Translations under genes and position numbers: made by a program | Notes under the pieces: model-generated | What the model was told of the DNA's origin: nothing | Databases searched by the model: none | Seen by the model: the letters and a program-made list of their open reading frames with translations, nothing else | Shown here: positions 32,793 through 62,036 of the stretch, in pieces | How positions within the stretch are numbered: the first letter of the stretch is position 1 | Layout: the number at the start of each line of letters is the position of its first letter | NCBI GenBank assembly: GCA_964436955.1 | Contig: CAYTFC010000003.1 | Span: 4,159 to 68,158, forward strand | Direction: 5' to 3' | DNA from: an uncultured bacterium | GTDB taxonomy: Bacteria; Chlamydiota; Chlamydiia; Chlamydiales; JAJFMA01 | DNA length: 64,000 nt

Positions 32793-32885
32793 AGACTTGT
32801 ATACCAGGCTAAACTAGCATTGGTGAAAACCGTCAAATATGTTACCTTCCATAATTAACGGTGTCTTTTCCTAGGCCTATATATT

Positions 32886-33866: not shown

Positions 33867-33874
33867 TAGATATC

Positions 33875-34735: not shown

Positions 34736-34737
34736 TC

Positions 34738-35367: not shown

Positions 35368-35379
35368 AGGTCAATAGAC

Positions 35380-36273: not shown

Positions 36274-36291
36274 TTGAAAGGGGCTTAAACG

Positions 36292-36567: not shown

Positions 36568-36570
36568 TCG

Positions 36571-37443: not shown

Positions 37444-37600
37444 CCTTGTCTTTTATACCTTTTTTAGATTCTTATCCTGGCGCTTAAGAGTAAATGCAAT
37501 GTTCCCAATGTCAATTTTAGTTTAAAATATTGTTGATTAAAACTTTAATCATGCTTAAACTGCCTGATATCATTTTTTAATTAATGAGAAGAAATACTTG

Positions 37601-40445: not shown

Positions 40446-40446
40446 A

Positions 40447-41452: not shown

Positions 41453-42187
41453 TTACTCCGATGCTAATCTAGCTAATACTCCACCATCACAGACAAATTC
41501 TTGGCCTGTGATACTACCTGATAAATCCGTATTCGCCAAAAATAAGGCGAGGGATGCAATTTCTTCGGGCCGTACAATACGGCCTAAAGGAGTAGATCTC
41601 TCTAAACGAAGCTTGGCCTCTTCATATTCTGAAGATCTGCTTAGGCTTCTTTTGAGCATCTCTGTGTTCACAGCTCCTGGCAAAATAGCATTCACGCGGA
41701 TATCAAGGGGCGCTAATTCAAGAGCAGCAGCTCGAGTAAATGCGCTCATCCCCCCTTTAGAGGTGACATAGGCGCACATTCCAGCCGAGGTCGCTCTGGC
41801 ATGAACCGACGAAATGTTCACAATCGAGCCTCCACTTAGTACTGGAGCAAATGCTTTGGTCATATAGAATGCGCCATTCAAATTAGTGGACATCACACGG
41901 TCCCATTCATCGATTGAGGTATCTAGTAACGATTTTTCGATCTGAATTGCCGCATTGTTAACCAAACAGTTAATGGTGCGATTCTCGGCTATGAATGCAT
42001 CTGCGAGACGTATCACTTGTGCTGGCTTACTAATATCTAACTCGATGTAGTTCCAGGCGCATTCGCTAGGCTTATCAGTGATGTCTAAACCGGTTACAAT
42101 CCATCCACGTTCAAAAAAGAGGTCTGCTATGGCTCTGCCAATACCTTGATTGCATCCAGTGATTAGAACATGCTTATTGTTGACCAA
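41453..42187 (-). CDS. short-chain dehydrogenase/reductase (SDR)
   Basis: VLITGCNQGIGRAIA cofactor motif, NISS, YVTSKGG (YxxxK) catalytic motif. Confidence 0.85.
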   Translation of the reverse strand: MVNNKHVLITGCNQGIGRAIADLFFERGWIVTGLDITDKPSECAWNYIELDISKPAQVIRLADAFIAENRTINCLVNNAAIQIEKSLLDTSIDEWDRVMSTNLNGAFYMTKAFAPVLSGGSIVNISSVHARATSAGMCAYVTSKGGMSAFTRAAALELAPLDIRVNAILPGAVNTEMLKRSLSRSSEYEEAKLRLERSTPLGRIVRPEEIASLALFLANTDLSGSITGQEFVCDGGVLARLASE

Positions 42188-43097
42188 TACCTAGCCCCTC
42201 CAGAAGCATATTAACGGAATTGATATGGACACGATCCCAACATACCAAGCTGCTGTTGGAGTTATGTGCGGCGAGGAAGACATTATTCATGCTACGTAGA
42301 GGGCTATTCAAGGCCAAGGGCTCGTGCTCAAAGACGTCTAATCCAGCTCCGGAAATTTGTTTGGTTTGCAAAGCCTGGACGAGATCAGATTCGTTAATTA
42401 ATGGCCCTCTGCCAGTATTGATAATAAAAGGACGGCGTTGCATTTGTGCAAAAGTAGCGGAGCTTAGGATATGCCTGGAGGTGGAATTAAGGTCGCAATG
42501 CAGAGAGATGATATCAGACTGACGTACTAACGTAGGAAGATCAACCATGGTGACATGTTCTTGTTCTTTTGACAAAATGTCATACGCCAAAATGCGCGCT
42601 CCACATGCTTGAAGTCGCTTTGCGAAGGCGGATCCTATTGCGCCGAGTCCAATGATTCCCACAGCGAGTTCAGAAAGGGCATATCCTTGTGGTTTGTGCC
42701 AGCCACCGCTCTTAAGAATGGAGTCATTGACAACGACATTGCGACAATAAGCTAGGGCATAAGCCAATGCTGTATCCGCAACGGGATCGGTGAAGGCGTT
42801 GGGGGTGCGGTAAACCTTAACCTGATATTTTTCGGCTTCGTCTTTCTGGATGGAATCGATACCGGTTCCCCATTTGACAACGACTTTAAGGTCTTTAGAT
42901 TGTTTATAGACGCTTTCACTAAAGCGATCATCCCCACAGATGATGCCATGCGCACCATTGAGATAGTGGATGAGCTCAGGTTCCTCAAGACGCTCTTCAA
43001 CGGCGGCCCAAACAACCTCTAAGGGTATTCCGCTTAAGAGAGGTTCGACCTTATGACGCTCACGCAGCATATAGGGCGCTGAAATTACGACTTTCAT
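42174..43097 (-). CDS. D-isomer-specific 2-hydroxyacid dehydrogenase family protein
   Basis: GIIGLGAIGSAFAKRL NAD motif, INTGRGPLINESDL, LDVFEHEP, AAHNS catalytic His region. Confidence 0.85.
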   Translation of the reverse strand: MKVVISAPYMLRERHKVEPLLSGIPLEVVWAAVEERLEEPELIHYLNGAHGIICGDDRFSESVYKQSKDLKVVVKWGTGIDSIQKDEAEKYQVKVYRTPNAFTDPVADTALAYALAYCRNVVVNDSILKSGGWHKPQGYALSELAVGIIGLGAIGSAFAKRLQACGARILAYDILSKEQEHVTMVDLPTLVRQSDIISLHCDLNSTSRHILSSATFAQMQRRPFIINTGRGPLINESDLVQALQTKQISGAGLDVFEHEPLALNSPLRSMNNVFLAAHNSNSSLVCWDRVHINSVNMLLEGLGIGQQ

Positions 43098-43101
43098 AAA
43101 A

Positions 43102-44661
43102 TCACATACTCTCTTTTGTCAATATGGCTCGTAGGGGAGCGCCATCGAGGTTTGGTAGATGCAGAGGTAGAGCGATAAGTTTGTATTTGCCGGGAGTTAC
43201 ATGCTTAAGATGTAGCCCCTCAACAATAATGGTATTTGCCTTCAGAAGAATTTCATGTGTGGCATTTGTGGGATCTTCAAACGCTTGTATCGAAGGTCCA
43301 TCGGTACCGATTAGATGGATGCCTTTTTGTACCAATAACTCAGCACTTTCGGGAGTAATTGCGATAAATTTTGGATCGAATTCTCCACACATTTCGGAAT
43401 TCTTTGTTTTAAGTAGAATGCGCGTAGTGGCAGCGGGAATATTTGCTGCGAGGAAGAACGACGGTTGGATATGGCCATTTCCGCGGTATTCTAGGACGTG
43501 AGCTTCGCCAATTAATTTGTCTAACCCGATGTCATGTGTAAAGGAACCGTCTTCAACAAAATGAAAGGGGGCATCCAGATGGGTTCCTGAGTGGGCACTT
43601 AACGAAACATGCGAAACATTGTGGCCATGTTCTGCCATCGTTTTGGTTTGAGAAATCTTTACGGGATGGTCGCCTGGCCACACAACCATACTAGAGGTAA
43701 TTGGTCGAGAAATGTCGATATATTCAGGTTTCATCGATGGCATATTGCTTTGCTGGCTAAAGGGCTTACGTGGGTAATAAAGTCGCCTACGCATCCCATC
43801 AGACATCGGTTCGCGATAGCGGTAGGCACGGAAAGTGCCCCAAAACTGCAAAAAGCGAAATAGCGGAATATCCATGAGGTTTGTGAGTAGTTTTCCATCC
43901 CTCAACGCATGGAAATAGTCTCCAATCGTATTCATGAGAGAGAATTTGGCAAAGCTCCACAAACCGAAATGATGATCCTTAAAGATCTCTTTGTAAGCTA
44001 GAGCCTCGCGGTAGTAGCGTCGATAGATCTGTGTGCTGGTTTCATCATGAATATGATAAACACTGGCTTCAGCAATGTATGCAATGCGATGGCCTTTTTG
44101 AAGGATGGCTTTGCCCCATGCGATGTCCTCTAGACCTGAGAGTGTTTCGTCAAATGGAGTTTGGTCCCATAAAGACCTTCGAATGGCCGAGTTGGCATTG
44201 TTGCAAAAGGCAAGCCCACAATCGGGATTGCTTTCCAGGGGAAACCATTTAGCAAAGATCTGATGTTCGGAATAGCGGGTTTGTTCATCACCTTGTTGAC
44301 GACCATAAACAAGCCCCACATTACTATCACGGCGAAGAGGTTCTACTAGATATTTCAACCACAATGTATTGGTGGGGTGGCAGTGTGCACTGATAACGAC
44401 TACTATGTTACCTTGTGCTTTGGCAATTCCCTGGTTTAACGAATAGCCAAATGTAAACTTCTCCGGAGATATTGTGACAATTTGTACAGGATAATCTCTG
44501 ACGATATCTAAAGTACCATCAATAGAACCAGAATCAACGACGATCACTTCAAAGGCAAGATCTATTTGTTGTGCATGAATTTCCTGAAGAAGACTCCCAA
44601 TATGCCTTGCTTCATTGTGAGTGCGGATGACAATGGAAATTTCGGGTTGCATCGAAGGCAT
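43102..44661 (-). CDS. fusion protein: N-terminal family-2 glycosyltransferase + C-terminal cyclase/kynurenine-formamidase-like domain
   Basis: GT2: ISIVIRTHNE, VIVVDSGSIDGT, LEDIAWG; cyclase family: AHSGTHLDAPFHF (HxGTHxDxPxH). Confidence 0.8.
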   Translation of the reverse strand: MPSMQPEISIVIRTHNEARHIGSLLQEIHAQQIDLAFEVIVVDSGSIDGTLDIVRDYPVQIVTISPEKFTFGYSLNQGIAKAQGNIVVVISAHCHPTNTLWLKYLVEPLRRDSNVGLVYGRQQGDEQTRYSEHQIFAKWFPLESNPDCGLAFCNNANSAIRRSLWDQTPFDETLSGLEDIAWGKAILQKGHRIAYIAEASVYHIHDETSTQIYRRYYREALAYKEIFKDHHFGLWSFAKFSLMNTIGDYFHALRDGKLLTNLMDIPLFRFLQFWGTFRAYRYREPMSDGMRRRLYYPRKPFSQQSNMPSMKPEYIDISRPITSSMVVWPGDHPVKISQTKTMAEHGHNVSHVSLSAHSGTHLDAPFHFVEDGSFTHDIGLDKLIGEAHVLEYRGNGHIQPSFFLAANIPAATTRILLKTKNSEMCGEFDPKFIAITPESAELLVQKGIHLIGTDGPSIQAFEDPTNATHEILLKANTIIVEGLHLKHVTPGKYKLIALPLHLPNLDGAPLRAILTKESM

Positions 44662-44930: not shown

Positions 44931-45677
44931 ATGAAGATCGTAGGTTGCATTCCCGCACGAATGGGGTCAAGTCGCTTTCCTGGAAAGCCTATGGAATTGA
45001 TCCATGGTGTACCGATGATTGGTCACGTCTATCTTAGAGCACGAGAGGCCACTTCCTTGAATGGGCTTTATGTAGCAACCTGTGATCAGGTAATCTTCGA
45101 TTACATCACCTCCATCGGAGGGATTGCAATTATGACTAGTGATGAACATCCAGGTTGTGTAGATCGTTGTACTGAAGCCTTATATGTTATAGAACAGCTA
45201 CAGGGAAAGCAGGTCGACGTGATGGTGATTATTCAGGGCGATGAACCTTTACTACGTCCAGAAATGATCGACGATGCGATTGCACCACTTAAGCAAGACC
45301 CTTCTATTTCCATTTCTAACTTGATGGGCCGCATTGAGGATCCTAAAGAGTTTAGTGATATCAATGAAATCAAGGTTGTGGTGGATTGTCATAGCAATGC
45401 TCTTTATTTTTCAAGAGAGCCAATTCCCTGCGGAAAAAAGGGGGAGGGCCATGCAAATCGATGGAAGCAAATTTGCATTATGCCAATACGTCGTGACTTG
45501 TTAATTCGATTTGGCGAAATGCCGCGCACATCACTAGAGATCTGTGAATCAATCGATATGTTAAGGCTATTGGAGAATGGTATTCCCGTTCGTATGGTGC
45601 CTACAAATCATGTGATGAAGAGTGTTGATACTCTAGAAGATCTTATTAAGGTTCGCGAATTAATGGAGGTTCATTAG
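44931..45677 (+). CDS. KdsB-like 3-deoxy-manno-octulosonate (or related ulosonic acid) cytidylyltransferase
   Basis: MKIVGCIPARMGSSRFPGKPM, IIQGDEPLL, ALYFSREPIP align by eye to E. coli KdsB; ATG 44931 preferred over TTG 44898. Confidence 0.8.
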   Translation: MKIVGCIPARMGSSRFPGKPMELIHGVPMIGHVYLRAREATSLNGLYVATCDQVIFDYITSIGGIAIMTSDEHPGCVDRCTEALYVIEQLQGKQVDVMVIIQGDEPLLRPEMIDDAIAPLKQDPSISISNLMGRIEDPKEFSDINEIKVVVDCHSNALYFSREPIPCGKKGEGHANRWKQICIMPIRRDLLIRFGEMPRTSLEICESIDMLRLLENGIPVRMVPTNHVMKSVDTLEDLIKVRELMEVH

Positions 45678-47449
45678 CCCGACGCCTCCACTGCTACCGG
45701 GTCTGTGCATAGGCGTTGGTAGAGATTAGATGTTTCTAACAACTCTTGATGCGTACCTTTCATCACAATGCGTCCAGCTTCTAGTACATGGATGCAATCA
45801 AAATTCTCAACTGTTGAAAGGCGATGCGCAATAGCTACTATCGTTTTACGACCAGCCATCTCCTTAATTGCTTGAGCGATGATCGATTCAGAAATATGAT
45901 CTAACGACGAAGTGGCTTCGTCAAACACAAGTATTTCTGGCTGATGGTAAAGCGCCCTAGCAATTCCCACGCGTTGCTTTTGTCCTCCTGAGAGCCTCAC
46001 GCCCCGTTCGCCAACGTGAGTGTTTGCTTTTTCAGGAAGTGTTTGCACAAATTCATGAAGATGGGCCATTACCAATGCATCGTGTAGCTTTTGGGTATCG
46101 ATAGTGGACTCACCAAATGCCACATTTTGAGCGATCGAGCCATCGACCAATGCGATGTCTTGCGGAACATAGCCAATTAGGTGCTTAATGCCCTGTAAAC
46201 TATGAACTGATTTGCCATCGATTTGGAATTTTCCTGAGTCAGGGGATAGTAAAGAAATCAGAATATCGACAAGAGTGCTTTTACCTACTCCAGATGGGCC
46301 CACAAAGGCAACCGAAGAATTTTTCATAATTTGGAAGCTAACGTCGTGTAAAACCTCTACGTCGTTTGAATAGGAGTAACATACATTTTCGAATGCTAAG
46401 CTACTTAAAAAGCTCCTTGCATGAGGCGAAAACTCTTGGTGCGTTGTTTCAATGTTTTTATGAAGTTCGAGATCTAAGCACTGCAAAGAGGCCTGAAATG
46501 CCTGCATTTGTATCCGTTGAGATACCACCTGGTTCACTGCGGGTAACAATCGCCTTCCCACTGCTCCCAGAAACAACATCGGAGCCACCAATTCAGAAGC
46601 GGGCCAATTCGAAAGTATCCAAACAACGACTACGCCTAGTAAGCCTATAAGAGCCACATATTCAATCAAGACCATAGGCACGGTTGGGTAGTAGACTGTT
46701 ACTGTTTGCGATCGTGCAATGCGCTTCACATAGCTGTCAAACAGCGAAGAAAAGTAGTTCTGTTTTTCATACAGCTTGACTTCTTTAAAGCTTAAAAGAC
46801 CATCGCTAATTGTTTGAAAAACTTTTGGAAAAATTGTTTCTTTTTCTTCTCCAGCCGCATTCATCGGTTTCTTTACAAGATGGTGCATCCAAGCACCAAT
46901 AAGTCCAAATAACGCAATCACTCCCATGGACAAAGCGAAAAATTCGGTTAATATCAGTATGGTCAAAAATATGGTCATGACGATAGCAGCAAGATAACGT
47001 AGATACTGCACCAGCGCATTTGCGCATTGGTCAATCGTAGTGGTACAGTTCTTCAGAAATAGCCCTGTATTACCTTTGATAAAGTCCTGATAGTTTTGAT
47101 GCAGATACCGATTAAAGATAAACAGCGCTTTTCTGCGATAGAATTGATAGGGAAATTTTGCAATTTGGTAGTTGAGGTACATCTGTAGCACAGATTTAAT
47201 GGTGATAGAAAGGCAGAATAGAACGGTAAGCCAAATGACTAGTTCCTTAGCTGTCCATTCCAAACCTGTCCAAACTTGTGCTACAGCAATGACGCGCTCC
47301 GGGTTACTGAGGACCTCCACATAGGGCACGATTAAAGCCAAGCCGAATGACTCGAAAAGAGAAAAGAAAATCATCAGGGCAAGGATAGCAAAAAAGCTAC
47401 GCTTTTCTTGAGTATTAAGGACGGCGATAATTAGCTTCCAGTTAGTCAC
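45674..47449 (-). CDS. ABC exporter, fused permease-ATPase (MsbA/PglK-like half transporter)
   Basis: 6-TM N-terminal domain; Walker A GPSGVGKST, signature LSGGQKQR, Walker B ILVFDEATSSLD. Confidence 0.9.
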   Translation of the reverse strand: MTNWKLIIAVLNTQEKRSFFAILALMIFFSLFESFGLALIVPYVEVLSNPERVIAVAQVWTGLEWTAKELVIWLTVLFCLSITIKSVLQMYLNYQIAKFPYQFYRRKALFIFNRYLHQNYQDFIKGNTGLFLKNCTTTIDQCANALVQYLRYLAAIVMTIFLTILILTEFFALSMGVIALFGLIGAWMHHLVKKPMNAAGEEKETIFPKVFQTISDGLLSFKEVKLYEKQNYFSSLFDSYVKRIARSQTVTVYYPTVPMVLIEYVALIGLLGVVVVWILSNWPASELVAPMLFLGAVGRRLLPAVNQVVSQRIQMQAFQASLQCLDLELHKNIETTHQEFSPHARSFLSSLAFENVCYSYSNDVEVLHDVSFQIMKNSSVAFVGPSGVGKSTLVDILISLLSPDSGKFQIDGKSVHSLQGIKHLIGYVPQDIALVDGSIAQNVAFGESTIDTQKLHDALVMAHLHEFVQTLPEKANTHVGERGVRLSGGQKQRVGIARALYHQPEILVFDEATSSLDHISESIIAQAIKEMAGRKTIVAIAHRLSTVENFDCIHVLEAGRIVMKGTHQELLETSNLYQRLCTDPVAVEASG

Positions 47450-47955
47450 TTTTTCGCTCCTACCGATTGTAAATCGGGAATAAGGCCATTCTTTAATAGG
47501 TATGTGGAACTGAATACGATGTCGTCAGTATAGTAGATGCGCCCGCCCACTGCTTCGATAGCCGCAATTTCTTCCTGCAGTTTAACGTCATCTGGCGTTT
47601 TCTGATACTCAATGCCTTTAATGTAAATGCTTGGAGCTAGCAGACGTATCGTAGGAGCCGCTGAGGGCCATCGATTGAGGCCAACATAATCAATGATGGA
47701 TAGAGCATTCAAATATTCACAACGTTGCCGGTGATTAAAAAAAGGTCTGCCTGGGCCTTTATTTACATAGCGATCTTCAGTCACCGTCACCACTAGAACA
47801 TCGCCTTGGCTCTTTGCTTCTTCAAAGTGCTTAAGGTGGCCGTAGTGTACAAGATCAAAGCACCCATGACAGTGAACGACACAAGTTCCCTGAGATTTTT
47901 TTAATGCGATTATTGCTGCCAGCTCATCTAGGTCTTTAATTTTATTTAAATCCAT
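47446..47955 (-). CDS. HxGH-type cytidylyl/adenylyl-transferase (RfaE domain II / TagD-like)
   Basis: HGCFDLVHYGHLKHFEEAK nucleotidyltransferase motif; IKGIEY ... GGRIYYT ... SSTYLL as in HldE domain II. Confidence 0.8.
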   Translation of the reverse strand: MDLNKIKDLDELAAIIALKKSQGTCVVHCHGCFDLVHYGHLKHFEEAKSQGDVLVVTVTEDRYVNKGPGRPFFNHRQRCEYLNALSIIDYVGLNRWPSAAPTIRLLAPSIYIKGIEYQKTPDDVKLQEEIAAIEAVGGRIYYTDDIVFSSTYLLKNGLIPDLQSVGAKK

Positions 47956-49447
47956 ATTTCAGCCCTTGTCTTAGATCCTCTATAGAAACCGGAATATTAC
48001 CTGTGCGGCTAACCTGGCATGCTGCAGCAAGACTGCCTAAAAAGGCACTTTCCCAAAGACTACCCCCAGCAATTAGAGTTAGGGCTGCGGCTGTCAGCAG
48101 GGAATCACCAGCGCCGGCAACGTCTTTTGGAGAGCTGTTAAGCGCTGGTAGCTTGTCTGTATGGAAAATAGACGAACCCGCTTCTGCGGAATACATAAGA
48201 ATACCTTCAGCGCCTAAAGTGATCACAACGTTCTGAGCATTACATTTATGGCAAAGGTTTTGAGCCAATACAGCCAAACCAGAATCATAGTCCTTTAGGG
48301 CAATTCGGGCTTCGCGCTCAGTGGGAGTAATGAGTTTCATTCCCATAAACCGTGATACGTCACCAATTTGTGAGGAGGACTGACTGTCTGCGACCATGGC
48401 AATGCCCTTGTCTGTGCAATGACGAGTAAGGACATCTACCATTGATTGGGGCAAACAGCCGTAGCTAAAATCGGAAAAAATGACGACGTCACATCCCTCA
48501 ATGCACTCTTGAAGGTCTTTCAACATGCGTTGAGATGTTTCATTCGAGATCGCATGTTGTCGCAGATGGTTAACTCGCAATAACGTTTTTCCTGCCGCGC
48601 GAAAACGTTGCTTGAGTGTAGTAGGTCGCTCGGGTTCAACATAAAATGTGGCCTTCACACCTTCTTGCATTAAGCGCTGACGAACAAAACTAGCAGGTTC
48701 ATCCTGACCTAATACGGAAAAGAACGAAACTTCTGCTCCTAAGCGCTTAGCATGGGCTGCAACTATAGCCGCTCCCCCCACAAACGTTTCGCGCATTAGA
48801 GGGCTGACAACTATGGTAGGATCCTCCTGTGACATGCCTAAGGCTTCACAATCAATGTATTCATCAATAATGGTATCTCCAATCACGCATACTTTGACGG
48901 AGGTAAATGATTCAAAAAGAGTAGGTAGGCGATGCAGTCCGCTTCCATGGCGCTCTAAAAAATTCGATGGAATATGGATGCCTGTTGCGGAGACCTCCTT
49001 GATCTGTTTTCTCAATAGATCAAAAGATGAAAACCCGATGTCTCCAGAGCAAAAGGCTAAGCGTCCTCCATACTTTTGTAATACCGCGGTTTCAGGATTA
49101 TCTCTTCCCTCGTGTTCCTTACCCTTAACAACAATTTCGGGACGCAGCCATTCCACAATTTGAGCAGATGGATCGCGCATGATGAATGCATGATCTACCC
49201 AAGTTGTCTCCTGAATTGCTTCCAAACGAATGGCCTCTGGCAGAAGAGTATCTGGAAAATCGTCTGATGTGACCCCCACAACCAAGCAATCGCCACTTTC
49301 AGCAGCGAAGCGTAATAGGCGTAAATGGCCAGGGTGAAGGATATTGAAATTGCCTGGGACAAAAACAATGCTACTGCCAGTACCGGCCTTGATCCTTATC
49401 TGTTCTAGATAATCCTTGCAGTTAACGGGAACTGTATTTGACACCAT
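47942..49447 (-). CDS. bifunctional HldE-like protein with inverted domain order (N-terminal HxGH nucleotidyltransferase + C-terminal PfkB sugar kinase)
   Basis: N-term PGNFNILHPGHLRLLRFA; C-term VCVIGDTIIDEY ... GGAAIVAAHAKRLGA ... DVAGAGDSLLTAAAL (PfkB signature). Confidence 0.8.
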   Translation of the reverse strand: MVSNTVPVNCKDYLEQIRIKAGTGSSIVFVPGNFNILHPGHLRLLRFAAESGDCLVVGVTSDDFPDTLLPEAIRLEAIQETTWVDHAFIMRDPSAQIVEWLRPEIVVKGKEHEGRDNPETAVLQKYGGRLAFCSGDIGFSSFDLLRKQIKEVSATGIHIPSNFLERHGSGLHRLPTLFESFTSVKVCVIGDTIIDEYIDCEALGMSQEDPTIVVSPLMRETFVGGAAIVAAHAKRLGAEVSFFSVLGQDEPASFVRQRLMQEGVKATFYVEPERPTTLKQRFRAAGKTLLRVNHLRQHAISNETSQRMLKDLQECIEGCDVVIFSDFSYGCLPQSMVDVLTRHCTDKGIAMVADSQSSSQIGDVSRFMGMKLITPTEREARIALKDYDSGLAVLAQNLCHKCNAQNVVITLGAEGILMYSAEAGSSIFHTDKLPALNSSPKDVAGAGDSLLTAAALTLIAGGSLWESAFLGSLAAACQVSRTGNIPVSIEDLRQGLKYGFK

Positions 49448-49473: not shown

Positions 49474-51444
49474 TTAGTATGCTTTTGCCAACTTGGGTTG
49501 GAGAAGCGTTGTAGACCCAGGCCCGACTGGGAGTAGTTTTGGGTGCTGTCTATCAATGAACCAATGATACCACAGTTCGAAATTGGCGAAATACAATAGC
49601 CGGCGAGCGGCTCGTGTAGTACCAGATCTGTCATTGAGCACGTCTTCTAGAGCCGAGCGCTTAAAGACAGCTCGCTCTTTAAGCTGCTCCACTCGCTTTC
49701 GCAACACCTGCTCTATTGATCCGGTAATAAAGTCGGCTTCTGGTATGCCAAAGCCCTTTTTCTTCATTTCCAAGCAGGAAGGATGGATGTATTTTGCACT
49801 TAGTTTTCGTAAAAGATACTTGGATTGATCTTTACGCCATTTCAAATGGGTGGGTAAGCGGAAGCAGAATTCCACCAAGTCGCGATCTAGATAGGGAAAC
49901 CTGCCCTCTATATGAAACCGCATCAAAAACCTGTCTGAGGTATGATTGTGATGAGTTCCTATATAGAATTTCATGTCTGCATAAGACAAAGCTTGGAATG
50001 AGTCCGTGAACTTTTTTAGATCTGGCGAAGCGCTTCTGATAGCTGCTAGTGCATCAATATTATCGTCTAAAAGATTATCTGCAAAGACGCTCGCGGGATT
50101 TTCATAAAGGTAGGAAGCAAAGAGTCTTCTAAAGATATCAAAGGGATCACTACTTTCCATGATTCGCGCAGCGGTTGTAAGGCGACCTTTTCGAGGGATA
50201 AAAGGTGCCAAAAAGGAAAGATGCTTCAACCATGGCCAATGTTGCTGGAGGTTTCTGTAGTATCCATACCCTCCCATCAATTCATCCGGTCCAAGTCCGT
50301 TTAAAATAACGCGAATTCCATGTTTTGAGATATTTTGTGCAATGGGGTAGTGTGGTTCTAAAGCTCCAATAGGTTCTTCAAATACCCATAGCATATCATC
50401 CAGAGAACCCATTAAGTCTTCTTTGCGAAACCTTGTAATGGTATGTGACAAGTTATGCATTTTTGCAGTTGCATGCGCCTGATCCAGTTCACTCAGGGAA
50501 TCAAGCGCTGTGTCATATGCCAATGTAAAGGCTCGGATAGTCGGGTGCATACTTGCAGCTATCGCCGTCATGGTTGTGGAATCTAACCCACCGCTCATGA
50601 GTGTCCCTACTTCCACATCAGCGATCAAGCATCTCTTGATAGCTTGATGAAGAAGCTCTTCGTAACGCTCTAAAGCCTTTTCTTCGCTAATGTCCAGCTG
50701 CTGACCTACTGGCAAATCCCAGTATTGAACAATTTGCTTTGAACCAACAGCTCTACCACTTAAGTAATGGCCAGGAGATAGCGCAAAGGCATCTTTGTAA
50801 GAGGTAGATGGCCTGGGAGAGCCCTGAAAAGCTATTCCTAAACAGAGTCCATTCCAGTTCGGTTTTGGATCGTAAAGGCCAGAAGCAATCAGAGTTGTCA
50901 TGTCCGAAGCAAAGACAAAGGAGCTCTCTCTTTGGTGATAGTATAACGGTTTTATTCCGATACAATCCCTAGCAATAAAAATAGAACGCTCCACAGCATC
51001 ATAAATGGCAAAGGCATACATGCCGCGAAATTTATCCAGTGCGTTATTACCCCATTGAAGATAGGCCTTTAGAACGACTTCGGTATCCGAGTCGCTGTAG
51101 AAATCCCATCCATGGCTTTCAAGTTCAGTACGAATCTCCAAAAAATTGTAGACCTCGCCATTGTACGTAAGCCAAAAGCGTCCTGAAGAAGCAGACATTG
51201 GCTGCGCTGCGCGATCGCTCAGATCGATAATTTTTAGGCGCGTATGCAGCAATGCGCCGAATACTAACGTATTGGGGTCTATCGCTTCGTTGAATGATGA
51301 AACCGTGCCTTGATTTGTGAAGAATACCCACCCTTGACCATCAGGACCACGGTCATAAAGAGTGCTTAAACAGCGTTGAGCCATCGCCAATGCCAGAGTA
51401 AAAGGCAGAGGATTGTCCAGAAAGAAGCCGGCAATACCACACAT
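49474..51444 (-). CDS. asparagine synthase (glutamine-hydrolysing)-family amidotransferase
   Basis: MCGIAGFF Ntn-Cys start, PP-loop LMSGGLDST; 656 aa. Confidence 0.9.
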   Translation of the reverse strand: MCGIAGFFLDNPLPFTLALAMAQRCLSTLYDRGPDGQGWVFFTNQGTVSSFNEAIDPNTLVFGALLHTRLKIIDLSDRAAQPMSASSGRFWLTYNGEVYNFLEIRTELESHGWDFYSDSDTEVVLKAYLQWGNNALDKFRGMYAFAIYDAVERSIFIARDCIGIKPLYYHQRESSFVFASDMTTLIASGLYDPKPNWNGLCLGIAFQGSPRPSTSYKDAFALSPGHYLSGRAVGSKQIVQYWDLPVGQQLDISEEKALERYEELLHQAIKRCLIADVEVGTLMSGGLDSTTMTAIAASMHPTIRAFTLAYDTALDSLSELDQAHATAKMHNLSHTITRFRKEDLMGSLDDMLWVFEEPIGALEPHYPIAQNISKHGIRVILNGLGPDELMGGYGYYRNLQQHWPWLKHLSFLAPFIPRKGRLTTAARIMESSDPFDIFRRLFASYLYENPASVFADNLLDDNIDALAAIRSASPDLKKFTDSFQALSYADMKFYIGTHHNHTSDRFLMRFHIEGRFPYLDRDLVEFCFRLPTHLKWRKDQSKYLLRKLSAKYIHPSCLEMKKKGFGIPEADFITGSIEQVLRKRVEQLKERAVFKRSALEDVLNDRSGTTRAARRLLYFANFELWYHWFIDRQHPKLLPVGPGSTTLLQPKLAKAY

Positions 51445-51463: not shown

Positions 51464-52534
51464 CTAAGTCAATGATAATCCCTTAAAAAAGCTTCGAAAT
51501 TCCTGAAACACTAGTTCTGGGTGCAAGGCCCACAGGCATGCATGATCGGTGCAATCGACAGCATTCTTAAATCGGCTGGTATTTCTTCCTACCCAAACAT
51601 TACAAGGTCCACAAGAAGGGTTAGAGGAAACATCTCGATGCATTTTAGGATTTAGCCACTCATAGCCAAATTGACTGGGGCTTGAACCACCCCAAACAAT
51701 GAAGGTGGGCTTCTTAAGGGAAGCAGCAATATGCATTAAACCGCTATCATGTCCAACAAGAACACTGCTTTGTTTAATAATATTCATAACCTCACTCAGA
51801 TTTGTCTTCCCAACTAGAGATGCTACCCCAGGAATATTCTCCTGCATAATTATTTGAGCATTGATCTGCTCGTTTTTATCGCCCAGTAAAATAAACTGAT
51901 GGCTTCGAAAGGCTTTTGATGCCATTTTGAGCCACTCTATCCAGTATTCTAATGGCCACGTTTTAAAGGCAAAAAGGTTATTCGCCGCGGTAGGCTGAAT
52001 GGCAATATAGGGCAAAGTTGTGTCTATGGAAGTAGGCTGCGCGGTTGAAAAACATCTTGCTATAGTATCCTCTGAAAATGCCATCATATCAGGCAACATA
52101 TCGTCATTTGTGGCATGGGGGACGCTAAGGCGCAGATTTTGAATTGCAGCATGAATACCTGTTGCGGGTGGTTGAGTAGTAGCATTTGCTCCTAGAAGCA
52201 GCCACAGTCTTTTTCCTTCTAGGGTGCCGATGATTTTGCGTCCTATCAATCGAGAGGTGAGGATGTTTTCCTTCGTTGCAGCTAGATAGCTGAGATAGAC
52301 TTCGTCAAACGCTTTATAGTTGTCTTTTACCAGACCAAATAGCGAGGCCATTGAGTCTTGGATAGAAATGGCGTTATCTAAAAGGCCGGTATCTTTGAAT
52401 AATACATCAGAGAAGTATTGCGATTGAAATATACCGGTGACGATACGCCCAGTTGCCTTTAGATTTTTTAATAAAGGAATCATGAGCAACGCATCGCCAA
52501 GTCCGGCGTTAATGTAGACAGCAGCTCGTATCAC
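51464..52534 (-). CDS. glycosyltransferase family 9 (LPS heptosyltransferase-type)
   Basis: GLGDALLMIPLLKNLK N-terminus, VGHDSGLMHIAASLKKPTFIVWGG C-terminal motif; GTG start. Confidence 0.8.
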   Translation of the reverse strand: MIRAAVYINAGLGDALLMIPLLKNLKATGRIVTGIFQSQYFSDVLFKDTGLLDNAISIQDSMASLFGLVKDNYKAFDEVYLSYLAATKENILTSRLIGRKIIGTLEGKRLWLLLGANATTQPPATGIHAAIQNLRLSVPHATNDDMLPDMMAFSEDTIARCFSTAQPTSIDTTLPYIAIQPTAANNLFAFKTWPLEYWIEWLKMASKAFRSHQFILLGDKNEQINAQIIMQENIPGVASLVGKTNLSEVMNIIKQSSVLVGHDSGLMHIAASLKKPTFIVWGGSSPSQFGYEWLNPKMHRDVSSNPSCGPCNVWVGRNTSRFKNAVDCTDHACLWALHPELVFQEFRSFFKGLSLT

Positions 52535-52755: not shown

Positions 52756-52784
52756 TTGTCAAAAATAAGTTATTTCAATATTGT
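52756..52784 (+). promoter_or_regulatory. promoter candidate (TTGTCA - 17 nt - TATTGT) for the 52820 gene
   Basis: Hexamers at 52756-52761 and 52779-52784; the implied start site lies downstream of TTG 52781, which supports ATG 52820. Confidence 0.35.
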
Positions 52785-52819
52785 GCAGTGCAGTTTTTCA
52801 TAACCGAAGGCAGGCAACC

Positions 52820-54370
52820 ATGTATCAACTTATAAACAAAATGGACTTCGAAGCTATCAGATTTCGGGGCCTTCTAGTAGTGGGTTGGGCCTTATTTGGC
52901 GCTTTTGTGGCGACATATTTGCTTTATTGGTACAGCGTTGGTGGCGATGCTTCTATCTACCTGCCTTATGCTAAGTGGATGTTCCATTCTCCATTTAGTT
53001 ATGGTGTTAGAGGCAATATCGCGTATGGAGCATCTTCTCCCCTTTGGGCCTTATTTATCTCGGTTTTCTATAGTCCTTCTGACACGGTATACTTGTACAG
53101 TTTAAAGGTCGCCAATTTAGCACTATTCCTTGGTTCAATTGTGATCCTCACCAAGAGCCTAAAGGTGCCTTTTTTACCGTTGTTTTTCTTAATCACAGTG
53201 AATGTCTCGGGTGTTTTCGAGTTTTTTCTGCTTTATGAAAATGCTCTTATCTTGTTTTGGATTGCCCTCGTGGTGCATTGCATTTGCAAGAACGACGTGC
53301 GTCGTTTACTTTGGGTAACTGCATTTTTACCTTTGGTTCGTGGTGAATTTGTGTTTATTCAGGTGGCTTGTCTGTATGCCTTCAGAAGGGAAATTCACAT
53401 TAAGCACCTATTATGGCAATGCGTGCCCTTTGGTCTTTATGCTGGTTACATGTTTTTTAATACGGATTCTCTTATCCCTTCGAGTGTGTTGACGCAAATT
53501 TTGAAAAACCGTCTTGCCTCACTAGAGCGTACTGACCGTCATTGGATACTCCAAATACTGGCAAATCTGTTCAACAATCCATACGCGTTAGCCTATCTGA
53601 TTTTTCTCACTGTCGCTGGTCTTTGCAAGGTTCCGCGAATGGAAAAGCTCTTTAGCGTATGCTTCTGGTCTTTGCTAGCAATGTTTCTTGTTGCAATACT
53701 ATTGCAACCATCGCTTCGATATAGTTCGGAGTTCTTTTCGCTTGGCAGTATTGCCTGTGCCGTTTACTTGCATCATTTTCTGGCGAAGAATCGTCTGCCC
53801 GACTCATCTTTAGTATTTTCCGCAGTTATCGTGATTATGTTTTTTACTTGGACGAACCTCTTCTTCCAGGAGTTTAAAGCCAGAAAGGAAAACTCTGAAG
53901 GACTTGCTTCTACATGGTACAGTCGCACAGTGCCCGATATGGCAAATATTCTTAATCAAGTAATGCTACCTGATGATAAAGTCCTCATCTATGAAATTCA
54001 GGGTCAGTATCACTTGAATCAACGTGCAGTATCTATGGACGGAGTAGTCGGCGGACAAGCTACGCCATATTTATTGATGGGAATCAAGGCTGGTAAACCC
54101 ACCATGGATGCTAGTTATGCAGATTTCATAGAGCAGCACCAGTATTTAGTATTAGGTCATGGTACGGGCGGAACTCTTTTCAAGGGAACAGCATACGATT
54201 TTCTAAATGACACTTGCGAGACATTAAATGTCGGAGATCATTGTCGCTATGGATCTTTGATCTTCACGAAGATAGCACAAAACCCTCGTTGGACAACAAA
54301 GGGGCAAAAGATAGACGAAACGTGGCGATCAATTTTTAAGATCGACCATGCTTCCCAAACAGCTGACTAA
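52820..54370 (+). CDS. polytopic membrane protein, GT-C / ArnT- or O-antigen-polymerase-like (function uncertain)
   Basis: ~10-12 hydrophobic helices over the first ~360 aa, then a ~150-aa soluble C-terminal domain; located in the glycan island. Confidence 0.55.
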   Translation: MYQLINKMDFEAIRFRGLLVVGWALFGAFVATYLLYWYSVGGDASIYLPYAKWMFHSPFSYGVRGNIAYGASSPLWALFISVFYSPSDTVYLYSLKVANLALFLGSIVILTKSLKVPFLPLFFLITVNVSGVFEFFLLYENALILFWIALVVHCICKNDVRRLLWVTAFLPLVRGEFVFIQVACLYAFRREIHIKHLLWQCVPFGLYAGYMFFNTDSLIPSSVLTQILKNRLASLERTDRHWILQILANLFNNPYALAYLIFLTVAGLCKVPRMEKLFSVCFWSLLAMFLVAILLQPSLRYSSEFFSLGSIACAVYLHHFLAKNRLPDSSLVFSAVIVIMFFTWTNLFFQEFKARKENSEGLASTWYSRTVPDMANILNQVMLPDDKVLIYEIQGQYHLNQRAVSMDGVVGGQATPYLLMGIKAGKPTMDASYADFIEQHQYLVLGHGTGGTLFKGTAYDFLNDTCETLNVGDHCRYGSLIFTKIAQNPRWTTKGQKIDETWRSIFKIDHASQTAD

Positions 54371-54453: not shown

Positions 54454-55050
54454 ATGACACTTGCTAACTATAACTCCCATATTGTCAATACTCTTAATAA
54501 TACCGAAGTAACCCATCGCCAACAAGCCGTGGAGCTGCAAGATGGTCTTTCGCAACTGCTTGCACAAATGCAGTTGGTTAAACAGAATACCCGTAAGGTA
54601 ATTCTCATTGGTAATGGTGGTAGCGCGGCGATAGCCAGTCATATCGCCACTGACTTTTGGAAGCGTGGTGGTATTCGCGCCATAGCATTCAGTGATGCAT
54701 CATTGATTACTTGTGTCAGCAATGACTTTTCGTATGCGGAAGTTTACAGCAAACCTATAGCGCAGTTTGCTGATGAGCACGATCTACTCATCGCCATAAG
54801 CAGCAGCGGAAATTCAGAGAACATTCTTAATGCGGTGAAGGAAGCTAAAAAACAAGGTTGCATTACAGTAACGCTATCAGGATTTTCTTCTGCTAATCTT
54901 CTTAGAACTCTTGGTGATATCAACTTCTACGTTCCTGGAAAAGATTATGGCTGTGTGGAAATTGGACACCTCATCCTTCTTCACTATCTCATCGACTCGT
55001 TTTTGACTCAGCAGGTTACCCGAGTTAGCGCTGGCTTAGCTGCCACATAG
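54454..55050 (+). CDS. gmhA: D-sedoheptulose 7-phosphate isomerase (SIS domain, GmhA type)
   Basis: VILIGNGGSAAIASHIATDF, LLIAISSSGNSENILNAVKEAK align by eye to E. coli GmhA; 198 aa. Confidence 0.8.
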   Translation: MTLANYNSHIVNTLNNTEVTHRQQAVELQDGLSQLLAQMQLVKQNTRKVILIGNGGSAAIASHIATDFWKRGGIRAIAFSDASLITCVSNDFSYAEVYSKPIAQFADEHDLLIAISSSGNSENILNAVKEAKKQGCITVTLSGFSSANLLRTLGDINFYVPGKDYGCVEIGHLILLHYLIDSFLTQQVTRVSAGLAAT

Positions 55051-57984: not shown

Positions 57985-57989
57985 GCGTC

Positions 57990-59763: not shown

Positions 59764-60741
59764 ATGAAGGCAATCGTCACAGGTGGATGCGGCTTTATTG
59801 GAAGCCATGTTGTGGATTTATTGGTTGCTAAAGGCGTCGATGTTGTCGTTTTAGATAATTTCAGCTCTGGACGTCGTGAAAATCTAGACCATGTGAAAGA
59901 ACACGTAAAAATTGTGGCTTGTGACATATCTCAGCCAGGTTCGTGGGACAATGAATTCGCACATGTAGATTGGGTGTTTCATCTTGCAGCTCTTGCAGAC
60001 ATTGTTCCTTCCATTAAGGACCCAGCCAACTACTTTCGTTCCAACGTGGACGGCACTTTCAACGTCTTGGAGGCTGCACGAAAACATCAGGTTAAGCGTT
60101 TGGTTTACGCGGCGTCTAGCTCATGCTATGGCATTCCTGATGCATTCCCTACATCTGAAGATGCTCCCCTAAGAGCAATGTACCCTTATGCCTTAACAAA
60201 AAGCTTGGGAGAGCAACTGGTTTTGCATTGGGCTCAAGTATATAAACTGCCTGCTCTCTCATTGCGCCTATTTAATGTTTATGGTCCGCGAGCCCGCACG
60301 TCGGGTACTTATGGCGCTGTCTTTGGAGTTTTTTTAGCTCAAAAACTCGCCCAAAGCCCATTTACAGTGGTGGGTGATGGCACGCAAACACGCGACTTTA
60401 CCTATGTTACTGATGTCGCCGCCGCGTTCATTGCCGCAGCAGAAAGTCAGCGTATCGGAAAGATCTACAATGTTGGTAGCGGGCATACAGTTTCTGTTAA
60501 CCATCTTGTCAATTTACTCGAAGGTGAAGTCACCTATATTCCTAAAAGGCCCGGAGAACCTGACTGCACTTTCGCCGATATTAAAAGCATTTGCCAAGAT
60601 TTAAAATGGGCTCCAAAAGTAAGCATCGAAGAGGGTGTTACCAAGCTGTTAGACGGGATTGAAGGGTGGAAATCGGCTCCCGTCTGGACGCCTGCAACAA
60701 TAGCCCATGAGACAAAGGAATGGTTTGAGTGTCTACGCTAA
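59764..60741 (+). CDS. NAD-dependent nucleotide-sugar epimerase/dehydratase (extended SDR)
   Basis: AIVTGGCGFIGSHV, YALTK (YxxxK), FNVYGPR. Confidence 0.85.
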   Translation: MKAIVTGGCGFIGSHVVDLLVAKGVDVVVLDNFSSGRRENLDHVKEHVKIVACDISQPGSWDNEFAHVDWVFHLAALADIVPSIKDPANYFRSNVDGTFNVLEAARKHQVKRLVYAASSSCYGIPDAFPTSEDAPLRAMYPYALTKSLGEQLVLHWAQVYKLPALSLRLFNVYGPRARTSGTYGAVFGVFLAQKLAQSPFTVVGDGTQTRDFTYVTDVAAAFIAAAESQRIGKIYNVGSGHTVSVNHLVNLLEGEVTYIPKRPGEPDCTFADIKSICQDLKWAPKVSIEEGVTKLLDGIEGWKSAPVWTPATIAHETKEWFECLR

Positions 60742-62036
60742 AACGCTGTTATCTTTGGCTTAAAAAGATTGAGCATTACATGCTTCACATCCCAATGACT
60801 CTCAAAAATTGCGTAAGTGCACACCGAATTTTTTCTGAAAAATACAAAGATAAATTAGTAGGTTTGCTTCCAAACCACGCAATTGGTCCCCAAGCACAAT
60901 ATATCGAAATGTACTTACGTAAGTCTAAGGTTCACAATTTCGATTTAAAGGAAGATGTGGTTCTAGTAGCCACTTCCCGGTATTGCAATAGACAATTTGA
61001 CCTTATGTGTTCGCGCTTAGCTAACATCGTTATCGATGATCAGTTGTATGACCTTCTTCAATATGGAGGATGGCGTTATTTAAAAAGGCAACGGCGTTGG
61101 TTGAGAAGTAGTTTTAGAAATGGAGTTGTTTATCATCCTTCCTGCCCCAGTCAATTAGATTTTTTGCCTGCCGAAGAGGAGCATGGTCGCTTCCTTTTAA
61201 AAAAAATGGGGGTAGACCCCACTAAGCCCTTTGTTACGATTAGCAATAAAGATAATTGGTATTGGCAAAGTCGTGGGGAAGATAAACCGTGGGATGCATA
61301 CCGTTGCTCTGTTTTTGAGGACCTTGTTCCCGCGATAGAATATCTACATATCAACGGCGTGCAGTCAATTCGGGTTGGATATTGTCCTGATACGTCGGCT
61401 CCGAACGCCTACCACACTCTATCTGTTCTTACGGTAGATGAAATCGACTTTATGGACATTTATTTGCAAAAGCATGCGTTATTTTCTGTTTGTGGGGACA
61501 GTGGACTTGCATGGGTGCCCTATATTTTCAAGACGCCAGTACTTTTGCATAACATGATTCCCCTGGGTGAAAGTCCGGTTGTAGAGCGTGGTATTTTTTT
61601 GCCTAAATGCATGAGGAAGGCTGGGACTGATAGAATAGCGAGCTTGAGTGAAATTCAAGAGATTAAACATTTCATAGGCTATTCCGAGATGGATCAATAT
61701 ATGATTCGAGAAATGAGTGCAGAGTTCTTTCAAGGAAGCTACTACTATGCTAAATATGGTCTAGAAATTATGGACAGCAGCCCGGAAGATATCTTGCAGG
61801 CTGTCAAAGAAATGCTGGGATATGTCGATGGAAAGTTTCAGCTGTCTCCTGAACAAAAAGCTAGGCAAACAGCCTTCAATCGATCATTTTCCTTGGGACA
61901 TCCCATGCGTCATACTACGGGGTGGGTTTCGCCTTCGTTTTTGCAGAAGAATGAAAATTTAGTCCGAGACAGGGTCCCTATCGGTGAGAATAAGCGCATT
62001 GACGGAATAGGAGAGCGGATAGATACACGTGCCTGA
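60729..62036 (+). CDS. hypothetical protein, possible glycosyltransferase (uncharacterised family)
   Basis: 435-aa ORF (GTG 60729; ATG alternatives 60780/60795); FVTISNKDNWYW ... VCGDSGLAWVPYIFKTPVLLHN resembles putative GT families seen in O-antigen clusters; weak. Confidence 0.5.
   Translation: MSTLKRCYLWLKKIEHYMLHIPMTLKNCVSAHRIFSEKYKDKLVGLLPNHAIGPQAQYIEMYLRKSKVHNFDLKEDVVLVATSRYCNRQFDLMCSRLANIVIDDQLYDLLQYGGWRYLKRQRRWLRSSFRNGVVYHPSCPSQLDFLPAEEEHGRFLLKKMGVDPTKPFVTISNKDNWYWQSRGEDKPWDAYRCSVFEDLVPAIEYLHINGVQSIRVGYCPDTSAPNAYHTLSVLTVDEIDFMDIYLQKHALFSVCGDSGLAWVPYIFKTPVLLHNMIPLGESPVVERGIFLPKCMRKAGTDRIASLSEIQEIKHFIGYSEMDQYMIREMSAEFFQGSYYYAKYGLEIMDSSPEDILQAVKEMLGYVDGKFQLSPEQKARQTAFNRSFSLGHPMRHTTGWVSPSFLQKNENLVRDRVPIGENKRIDGIGERIDTRA

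Follow-up and report, generated by a model that had tools for sequence, protein, structure and literature searches.

Nucleotide-heptoses are building blocks of lipopolysaccharide (LPS) cores, capsules, S-layers and antibiotics, and several enzyme architectures serve their synthesis. In HldE, a PfkB heptokinase-type domain and an HxGH-fold domain share one polypeptide, with the kinase N-terminal and the adenylyltransferase C-terminal, and the enzyme works with a GmhA-type isomerase. In Burkholderia and Neisseria the HldA kinase and the HldC transferase (structures 4E84 and 5X9Q) are separate proteins, while the pathway to GDP-D-glycero-alpha-D-manno-heptose runs through GmhA, HddA, GmhB and HddC, with a kinase of the GHMP type and a nucleotidyltransferase (NT) of the HddC/RmlA fold (PF00483). 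In two commentaries, heptose NT enzymes are listed as the NT alone, kinase-NT and isomerase-kinase-NT, and the order NT-kinase is absent (PMC11461863, PMC11573728). Here we describe a gene pair with that order in a 64-kb stretch of contig CAYTFC010000003.1 from an uncultured chlamydia-like bacterium, which we call the window and compare with related stretches named L001-L097. One gene encodes a protein of 501 amino acids (aa) in which an HxGH NT-like domain precedes a PfkB kinase (the NT-PfkB fusion), and the gene overlapping it encodes a stand-alone HxGH NT of 169 aa (NT169). On balance, we consider the pair to be probably the core of a paralogous nucleotide-heptose activation pathway, in which NT169 would be the working transferase and the fused HxGH domain would have a non-canonical role.

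The fusion gene (47942-49447, minus strand) is matched by PF01467 (CTP_transf_like) over residues 30-109 (E 7.8e-13) and by PF00294 (PfkB) over residues 185-486 (E 3e-32). Its N-terminal NT-like domain, of the HldC clade, covers approximately residues 1-168 (48944..49447, minus strand), and its C-terminal HldA/HldE-I-like kinase domain approximately residues 178-501 (47945..48916, minus strand). NT169 (47446..47955, minus strand), an HldC/ECT-like member of the family here called NT160, matches PF01467 over residues 30-153 (E 1.4e-13). The initial annotation, made from the letters of the DNA, had already described the HxGH-then-PfkB order and quoted several motifs, and these are present: the fusion reads PGNFNILHPGHLRLL, VVKGKEHEG, GFSSFDLL, VCVIGDTIIDEY and DVAGAGDSLL. 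Its account of the junctions was also confirmed when they were read directly, since the fusion stop overlaps the NT169 start by 14 nt (aaatATGGATTTAAATAAaatt) and the tetranucleotide GTGA contains both the NT169 stop and the start of the gene of an ATP-binding cassette (ABC) exporter. A Shine-Dalgarno sequence, GGAGG, lies upstream of the fusion ATG. Together with a glycosyltransferase family 9 (GT9) gene and an AsnB-like gene on their 5' side, these genes lie head to tail in the order GT9, AsnB-like, fusion, NT169, ABC exporter, with gaps of 19, 26, -14 and -4 nt, and the five constitute one operon. In the relative L003 (fusion 67% identical), the operon layout with GT9 and ABC exporter is kept and the AsnB-type amidotransferase adjoins GT9 as it does in the window; orthologues of the SIS isomerase and of the extended short-chain dehydrogenase/reductase (SDR) described below stand beside the fusion, with a 412-aa TIGR04372 orthologue next to the SDR. 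Because of the long open reading frames (ORFs), the strong domain scores and the same arrangement in the L003 orthologues, the gene pair lies far beyond what chance would produce.

The kinase half had been likened to domain I of HldE, and this resemblance held. Its best family is TIGR02198 (heptose-7-P kinase), at 200.6 bits against 62.5 for ribokinase, the TIGR02198 cutoff of 345 not being reached, and its best sequence match among Protein Data Bank (PDB) entries is Burkholderia HldA 4E84 at 95 bits, the next match having about 30. In Foldseek comparisons, the AlphaFold model of the kinase (pLDDT 82.5) superposes on HldA 4e84 with a target-normalised TM-score of 0.90 and an rmsd of 2.0 A (E 2e-25), and other PfkB kinases follow from E 1.7e-17. 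An affinity to ribokinases or fructokinases was looked for and not seen, HldA being the best match by sequence and by structure. The domain carries the GAGD anion hole, and its lid motif, GMSQEDPTIVV, has S-x-E-x-P-x-x-VV in common with the RISPEAPVPVV of HldE. By sequence and predicted structure, HldA is clearly the PfkB kinase nearest to this half of the fusion, which carries an N-terminal domain that HldA does not have. It is 25% identical to EcHldE-I and 31% to BcHldA, which share 49% with each other, whereas identity within its own family is 51-67%. The complete fusion protein scores 168.6 bits against the HldE equivalog NF008454 (cutoff 521), and both halves fall below the respective TIGR02198 and TIGR02199 cutoffs.

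For the fused HxGH domain, the top PDB sequence match is HldC 5X9Q (46.9 bits), and the structure nearest to its model (pLDDT 84.3) is HldC 5xf2 (E 1e-10, 29% identity), followed by Fom1-CyTase, TagD, ethanolamine-phosphate cytidylyltransferase (ECT) and CCT; against TIGR02199 it obtains 59.3 bits (cutoff 181.5). NT169 reaches 87.1 bits with this same family, which is below the cutoff and still its top-scoring one, and its PDB matches are ECT (60 bits, the best), HldC (45.7) and TagD (36). ECT carries tandem cytidylyltransferase domains (3ELB, 4XSV) whose catalytic roles are unequal, and the window resembles it in having two modules of this fold with unequal catalytic equipment. In ECT, however, both modules belong to one chain without a kinase, and in most relatives of the fusion the partner enzyme does not have the cytidylyltransferase fold.

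Motif scoring covered 120 fused domains together with 112 NT160 proteins. HxGH is found in 100% of the NT160 proteins, and in the form HPGH in 100% of the fused domains; the KGG-type motif takes the form K-G-x-E in both families, and the C-terminal motif is E-I-V-F-S-S-T in about 98% of the NT160 proteins and F-S-S in the fused domains. The families part at the KG..RP lysine loop, which is K-G-P-G-R-P in nearly 100% of the NT160 proteins (NKGPGRP in NT169), whereas in the fused domains the loop is shortened and its lysine is present in 20% of the 120; the window protein, reading SDDFPDTLLPE, is without it. In BpHldC, Lys69 of the KG motif is catalytically important and sits centrally in its active site, Phe143 of FEHDRSTT stacks on the base, and TNG, NSD, EXTP and KGG are the predicted binding motifs for beta-heptose-1-P (PMC7993394). 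The catalytic set of NT169 is complete (HYGH, KGPGRP, R, KGxE and FSST), and its conserved Arg is present in 100% of the 112 NT160 proteins. With HldC it shares the stand-alone format of about 165 aa, HxGH, the KG lysine, the Arg and KG-x-E/D; it differs in having HCHGC for TNG, T-E-D for NSD, RWPSA for EXTP and DDIVFSST for FEHDRSTT, and it keeps the K-G of KGG (as KGIE) and the S-S-T. On these motifs, the foremost candidate for the role of sugar-1-P nucleotidyltransferase is NT169. Just before HxGH, the NT160 proteins have C-H-G-C (the two Cys in 100% and 98%), where HldC and HldE have T-N-G-V; the stretch is VHCHGCF in NT169 (residues 27-33), and it may be a redox or metal feature.

The fused domain presents another picture. 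Its family has about 30 invariant columns, including those of HPGH (H38, H41) and R43, R74, K108, E111, N117, E119, S134 and S141. Because HPGH and these columns are invariant, the domain, which appears to derive from HldC, is predicted to be functional and to bind nucleotide; because the catalytic-lysine loop has been lost, it is probably not the main sugar-1-P nucleotidyltransferase. Most likely, it would be a module that binds a nucleotide or a nucleoside diphosphate (NDP)-sugar, with a part in regulation or in docking of the transferase, or else a transferase with altered chemistry. The two nucleotidyl transfers proposed in the initial annotation are unproven and somewhat disfavoured, the fused domain being without the lysine loop that NT169 keeps. 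The domain may even represent a new functional class, an idea that we put forward tentatively: a pseudo-nucleotidyltransferase sensing NTP or NDP-heptose, by which the kinase is gated or the real transferase docked, or a lysine-independent transferase that acts on the bisphosphate and gives NDP-heptose(-7-P) independently of GmhB.

The architecture itself is common rather than unusual. The 120 best homologues of the fusion all have PF01467 followed by PF00294, are about 495 aa long and 53-68% identical, and come from Desulfobacterota, Betaproteobacteria, Chloroflexota, Nitrospirota, Ozemobacteraceae and others. The window protein falls within this family, with 53-68% identity to 119 homologues that all combine PF01467 and PF00294, with NT169 adjacent and a SIS gene nearby, and L003 and L067 are alike in this. 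In a metagenome scan at least 568 of 600 candidate stretches encoded a relative of the fusion, while a genome-contig scan with the single protein gave one real relative, in a Flavobacteriales metagenome-assembled genome. When the N-terminal domain alone was compared with 1.84 billion representatives, 526 clusters (50% identity) were obtained at E<=1e-10; among the best 150 of these the domain is always N-terminal in proteins of about 470-500 aa or fragments thereof, and none has it stand-alone or C-terminal. Other fusions of the domain were also sought in a Rosetta-stone search, in which the matches of odd length all came either from truncated copies of this architecture or from a single contig that is likely chimeric. 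Since the kinase is 25-31% identical to HldE and HldA and 51-67% identical within its own family, and since this type of N-terminal domain occurs only at the N-terminus of PfkB proteins, the fusion is a member of an old, separate family, widespread across many bacterial phyla, and no shuffled hldE, so that the term 'rearranged HldE' first applied to it does not fit. Its members are annotated as 'PfkB family carbohydrate kinase', 'rfaE bifunctional protein kinase chain/domain' or 'ADP-heptose synthase'. Our literature searches found no paper on a characterised NT-PfkB enzyme, although Tang et al. 2024 or another paper may treat the architecture.

A sister lineage with degenerate HxGH motifs was found in fusions of about 510 aa (L010:8476-10008, L011:8480-10015, L012:8492-10051, L096:7537-9063 and L097:7474-9018), of which that of L096 is an archaeal type. 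There the fused copy reads HPG[V/M/I] and [R/L]G.GRP, so the second catalytic His and the Lys are lost, and the adjoining NT160 is intact. In L010-L012 the fused domain is 39-42% identical to the NT160 gene immediately upstream. From these sequences, it looks like a duplicated and inactivated transferase retained within the kinase.

ORFs were called in 91 related loci, the window included, and labelled with hidden Markov models (HMMs) whose sources were Pfam-annotated neighbours and the E. coli proteins HldE, GmhB and GmhA; because these HMMs are home-made and the ORF caller is crude, the neighbourhood counts are approximate. The fusion almost always has a second NT beside it. Directly on its 3' side, 45 of the 75 loci with downstream sequence encode, by a strict rule, a PF00483 NT of about 235-250 aa, and about 60 do so when 15 loci with over-extended ORF starts are added. 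The models on which these partners do best are mannose-1-P guanylyltransferase (104-130 bits) and HddC (71-88 bits), all sub-threshold. In a minority, which makes up most of the remaining loci, an NT160 gene stands beside the fusion instead; these are the window, L003, L067 and L010-L012. The relatives are thereby similar to the GDP-heptose pathway, since most of them pair the kinase with an HddC/RmlA-fold NT and have SIS and 4,6-dehydratase-like SDRs after it, in clusters for surface glycans; they differ from it in that the cassette kinase is PfkB and not GHMP, and the window NT is HxGH and not PF00483. The second NT thus appears to be replaceable by an enzyme of a different fold, and the fused domain would be something extra. 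In the 27 well-flanked loci (at least 5 kb on each side), we counted a PF00483 NT in 22 and NT160 in 5, both within 8 kb of the fusion, an SDR in 22, a GmhA-like SIS in 19, a split transketolase in 16-18, a GmhB-like HAD in 6 and an APH-type kinase in 8.

Sampled from the other side, the association is the same. All five NT160 homologues that were sampled, from Omnitrophota, Nitrospinae, Ca. Methanoperedens and two metagenome contigs, lie directly upstream of an NT-PfkB fusion, which is followed by SIS and transketolase genes (the Ca. Methanoperedens protein is labelled 'FMN adenylyltransferase' by its source). NT169-type proteins were within fusion-SIS-transketolase cassettes at 6 of 6 non-chlamydial loci, where TagF-like genes are not the partners, and a homologue 64% identical to NT169 exists in 'Chlamydiales bacterium SCGC AG-110-M15'. 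In relatives, the GmhA-like isomerase is directly adjacent to the fusion; in the window the SIS gene is 5 kb from it. The archaeal L096 has adjacent genes for a transaldolase, for a HAD bearing the GmhB signature DRDG...SNQSGIARG...CDCRKPRPGML, for NT160, for the fusion, and for SIS and transketolase, and judging by these genes it would encode every step from pentose-phosphate intermediates to NDP-heptose. In L017 the order is fusion, GmhB (150 bits, cutoff 178) and PF00483.

The SIS protein of the window (54454..55050, plus strand; TIGR00441 107 bits, cutoff 209) can be compared with E. coli GmhA, in which H61, E65, D94, S119, S121, S124, Q172 and H180 have catalytic, metal-binding and phosphate-binding roles. 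It keeps H61, D94, S119, S121, S124 and H180 and carries the substitutions E65D and Q172E. The H-D-E-H pattern is found in 31 of 34 SIS proteins of cassette loci; as it is shared whatever the module, the SIS subtype was discarded as a divider between cassettes and canonical modules.

Taken as a heptose pathway, the cassette of the window would operate as follows. The SIS isomerase would act on a ketose phosphate, sedoheptulose-7-P being the most likely one, and yield the aldose-7-P, and the HldA-like PfkB domain would phosphorylate the anomeric hydroxyl to give the 1,7-bisphosphate. The distal phosphate would be removed by a 7-phosphatase encoded outside the window, NT169 would form the NDP-sugar, the SDR would tailor it, and GT9 and other glycosyltransferases would use the product, after which the co-translated ABC exporter would flip the lipid-linked glycan. 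The analysis establishes which domains the proteins have, the family they belong to, the conservation of the gene neighbourhood and which motifs are kept or lost; heptose as the substrate, this order of steps, the catalytic part of NT169 and the part played by the fused domain are inferred from there. The original proposal of a variant activation route for heptose or another sugar therefore stands in one part, namely a heptose-type module with an HldA-like kinase, a GmhA-like isomerase and GT9, and falls in another, the origin from a rearranged HldE.

Several observations weigh against this pathway or against the roles assigned within it. All its components are below the heptose equivalog cutoffs (kinase 200/345, NT169 87/181.5, SIS 107/209, GT9 68/134), and because every one of them is sub-threshold the sugar could differ from D-glycero-D-manno-heptose. 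The E65D and Q172E substitutions of the SIS proteins are systematic, and most loci have a dedicated transketolase. As given in PMC11461863, (F/L)XXGXSTT is the hallmark of heptose nucleotidyltransferases (Tang et al. 2024); neither HxGH module has it, nor do they have TNG, NSD or EXTP, and at the corresponding position the fused domain reads GDIGFSSF (family consensus G-[DE]-[IV]-x-F-S-S-x). The model of E. coli GmhB detects no GmhB-type phosphatase in the 64-kb window, as the initial annotation had noted for the island around the pair, and a GmhB-like gene is present in just 6 of the 27 well-flanked loci. L025:2943-5788 and L047:2991-6479 contain a complete GDP-heptose-type module (GHMP kinase HddA, PF00483 NT HddC, SIS and GmhB) a few kb from the pair of NT-PfkB and PF00483, and there GmhB and SIS are part of that separate module; therefore, the cassette is not simply 'the' heptose pathway in these loci, and a second product, anomerically or chemically distinct, is likely. 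The invariant columns of the fused domain look like an active site, and because of this resemblance the domain may well be catalytic. The kinases of the sister lineage are a deep branch of their own, the third, with 19-27% identity to the two others, and because of this deep separation (23-27% identity) the comparison of their inactivated domains with the window protein is an analogy and not an orthology. Finally, our literature searches found no biochemical data on the cassette enzymes.

In view of these points, other explanations have to be considered. The one nearest to the two transfers of the initial annotation holds that both HxGH domains are active, which seems to us possible but doubtful. 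The fused domain would then take heptose-1,7-bisphosphate to NDP-heptose-7-P, bypassing GmhB (Zhou and colleagues reportedly showed in 2018 that HxGH adenylyltransferases can turn heptose-1,7-bisphosphate into ADP-heptose-7-P), or it would make a second NDP-heptose with a different nucleotide, the other pool being supplied by NT169, or by the PF00483 enzyme in relatives. The invariant HPGH and the invariant columns, many of them charged or polar, argue for such activity, as do the obligate joining to the kinase, the lack of GmhB in the window and in 21 of the 27 well-flanked loci, the full GDP-heptose module that L025 and L047 have besides the cassette, and the second NT of either fold, as though just 'a second NDP product' were needed. 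However, the equivalent of BpHldC Lys69 is missing from the shortened loop, a dead fused copy is tolerated in the sister lineage, GmhB may be encoded elsewhere, as in E. coli, and to our knowledge no pathway requires two nucleotidyl transfers on one sugar. A different sugar handled by the same chemistry (isomerase, anomeric kinase and NT), such as an octose or some other aldose phosphate supplied by the dedicated transketolase and the isomerase, is in our opinion unlikely. It would agree with the sub-threshold scores of all components, with the lid motif and predicted sugar-binding motifs that differ from those of HldE and HldC, with the systematic SIS substitutions, with the dedicated split transketolase of most loci and with the coexistence of canonical modules in L025 and L047. 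It agrees less well with the near-threshold GmhB orthologues within the L017 and L096 cassettes, with the transaldolase and transketolase of L096, which are the textbook route to sedoheptulose-7-P, with the GT9 of the window operon, and with HldA and GmhA as best matches by a wide margin. The GmhB neighbours had also been considered as proof of a bisphosphate intermediate, and this use of them is weakened by the separate modules of L025 and L047, although L017 and L096 are still supportive.

A further possibility, which we find improbable, reverses the roles of the two modules: the fused domain would be the true heptose-1-P nucleotidyltransferase, that is, a functional reversed HldE, and NT169 would activate a phospho-alcohol (glycerol-3-P, phosphoethanolamine or an alditol phosphate) for the same glycan. 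HldC is indeed the best match of the fused domain by sequence and structure, but on HldC the two modules score equally (NT169 45.7, fused domain 46.9 bits). The ECT match of NT169 at 60 bits, with TagD at 36, would be in line with a phospho-alcohol substrate; phospho-alcohol cytidylyltransferases occur in both the HxGH (CCT) and the PF00483-like (LicC) folds, which would fit an interchangeable partner, and the APH-type kinases of 8 of the 27 loci can be read in the same way. Nevertheless, NT160 is bound to the fusion, SIS and transketolase at all sampled loci, and where the fused copy has lost its HxGH, NT160 is the sole intact HxGH nucleotidyltransferase beside the kinase. TagD, a member of the same HxGH fold and clade, matches both window domains weakly: its model TIGR01518 (cutoff 165.4) gives 24.1 bits for the fused domain and 39.1 for NT169, and nothing in the genomic surroundings ties these domains to glycerol-phosphate metabolism or TagF-type polymerases. 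The window operon is without an APH kinase, a glycerol-3-P dehydrogenase or a TagF-like gene, and the sole TarB/F-like match is weak (E 1e-4) and lies 30 kb off, at 15399-16487. The earlier suggestion that one of the two NTs makes CDP-glycerol for a TagF-like enzyme was rejected on these TagD scores and on the placement of NT160, at all sampled loci, within cassettes of kinase, SIS and transketolase. We thus retain as probable the nucleotide-heptose pathway with NT169 as its transferase.

The other genes of the operon and of its surroundings are in large part glycan genes. GT9 (51464..52534, minus strand), the first gene of the operon, belongs to the heptosyltransferase family (PF01075, E 1.7e-22) and scores 68 bits against the heptosyltransferase II model (cutoff 134) and 60 bits against the I model, both sub-cutoff. 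It is followed by the AsnB-type glutamine amidotransferase (49474..51444, minus strand; TIGR01536 380 bits, above cutoff). The ABC exporter (45674..47449, minus strand), in which permease and ATPase are fused, is PglK/MsbA-like (NF050066 PglK 324 bits, TIGR02203 MsbA 294 bits, each under cutoff) and by these scores a probable flippase for a lipid-linked glycan. As a cassette-specific partner it was rejected: its L003 orthologue is 59% identical and it is kept only in the chlamydial lineage, whereas other cassettes have ABC genes of about 30% identity nearby, which is generic. The extended SDR (59764..60741, plus strand; epimerase/dehydratase, PF01370 E 9e-63) probably modifies an NDP-sugar, and with it the GalE, 4,6-dehydratase and heptose-6-epimerase models all score under their cutoffs. 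It is followed by the gene of a TIGR04372-family glycosyltransferase (60729..62036, plus strand; 114 bits, cutoff 45).

Two genes of the window had been named as possible substitutes for GmhB, and neither is a likely one. The HAD-IB protein (58982-59602) exceeds its family cutoff (TIGR01490 132 bits, cutoff 98.3) and sits in a module of AMP-ligase, FabG and carrier-protein genes; the KdsC (12972-13502) is a genuine one (173 bits, cutoff 107) located 34 kb away, although it may be promiscuous. The former module (56632-59602, minus strand) contains four overlapping genes, for an AMP-binding ligase (450 aa), a FabG-like SDR (239 aa), a 102-aa protein and the HAD-IB (206 aa); the 102-aa ORF is carrier-protein-like, with a DSLD motif and no family match. 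Together they would form an acyl-activation or modification module inside the glycan island.

Side observations were also made in the relatives. In L022:11455-12746, the gene of a 23S rRNA intervening-sequence protein (bAvd-like) splits the fusion from its PF00483 partner, a pair that is otherwise closely spaced, and in L047 a 646-aa ORF joins NT and GmhB and ends in a PRK-like tail. L001, L008, L022, L031 and L043 have, directly upstream of the fusion, the gene of a zinc-dependent medium-chain alcohol dehydrogenase (about 305-360 aa), which is not found in the window; the ribulose-5-P reductase TarJ is of the same enzyme class, and this recurrent gene may point to a step of alditol or keto reduction in many of the cassettes. 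At L097:4843-5988, a gene of the Pfam family 'Lept_O_ant_chp1' (Leptospira O-antigen conserved hypothetical) stands beside the NT160/fusion cassette, and Leptospira rfb loci might contain the same cassette. The fusion locus of L003 lies near a TLC ATP/ADP translocase gene.

Elsewhere in the window, the region 42174-44661 (minus strand) encodes a D-2-hydroxyacid dehydrogenase and then a fusion of GT2 with an arylformamidase-like 'cyclase' domain. In the Omnitrophota locus L012:4826-8020, the 2-Hacid_dh, Cyclase, HAD and GSU2086-family genes are separate and lie directly upstream of NT160, and a shared side branch is suggested. At the edge of the glycan island (39108-41424, minus strand), a homologue of the VimE-like (DUF7033) deacetylase (201 bits, sub-cutoff) adjoins a FemAB/GNAT-like protein. 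No Pfam match was obtained for the ORFs at 55069-56616 (minus strand, 515 aa), 52781-54370 (plus strand, 529 aa) and 37598-39058 (plus strand, 486 aa), nor an NCBIfam match for the first two. The 529-aa ORF, between GT9 and SIS, is by eye a polytopic membrane protein, possibly a ligase or polymerase. Further on, lpdA, lipA, sctJ, a gene of no assigned family, sctL, sctR, (sctS) and sctT (29121-37443) make up a type III secretion sub-cluster directly after the lipoate genes; of SctJ, SctL, SctR and SctT, three are above their curated cutoffs and SctT has 148.5 bits against 163. The order lpdA-lipA-sctJ is typical of Chlamydiae. The window also contains McsA/McsB and, by eye, rpsB-tsf-pyrH-frr. 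Together with the translocase gene of L003 and the Chlamydiales homologue of NT169, these features assign the window to a Chlamydiota-like genome.

The cassette as a whole appears to be a common variant of a known pathway, and its real curiosity is the HldC-derived domain, obligately fused to a kinase and lacking the catalytic lysine of its clade. The LPS of Chlamydiaceae is heptose-free, with Kdo only, and knowing the product would tell whether chlamydia-like bacteria put heptose on their envelope. In the cytosol, ADP-, CDP- and UDP-heptose act as danger signals that vertebrate ALPK1 senses (PMC11461863, PMC11573728), and ALPK1/TIFA is vertebrate-only (PMC11573728). If NDP-heptose(-7-P) were made independently of GmhB, an intracellular chlamydia-like bacterium would produce a compound that belongs chemically with the ALPK1 agonists, although the relevance of the locus to ALPK1 is speculation. 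Knowledge of the role of the fused domain and of the sugar nucleotide would close a gap in the census of heptose producers and would correct the labels 'ADP-heptose synthase' and 'PfkB family carbohydrate kinase' now carried by these proteins. If the fused domain proves to be a product sensor or a bypass of GmhB, it would be an enzyme fold repurposed within its own pathway.

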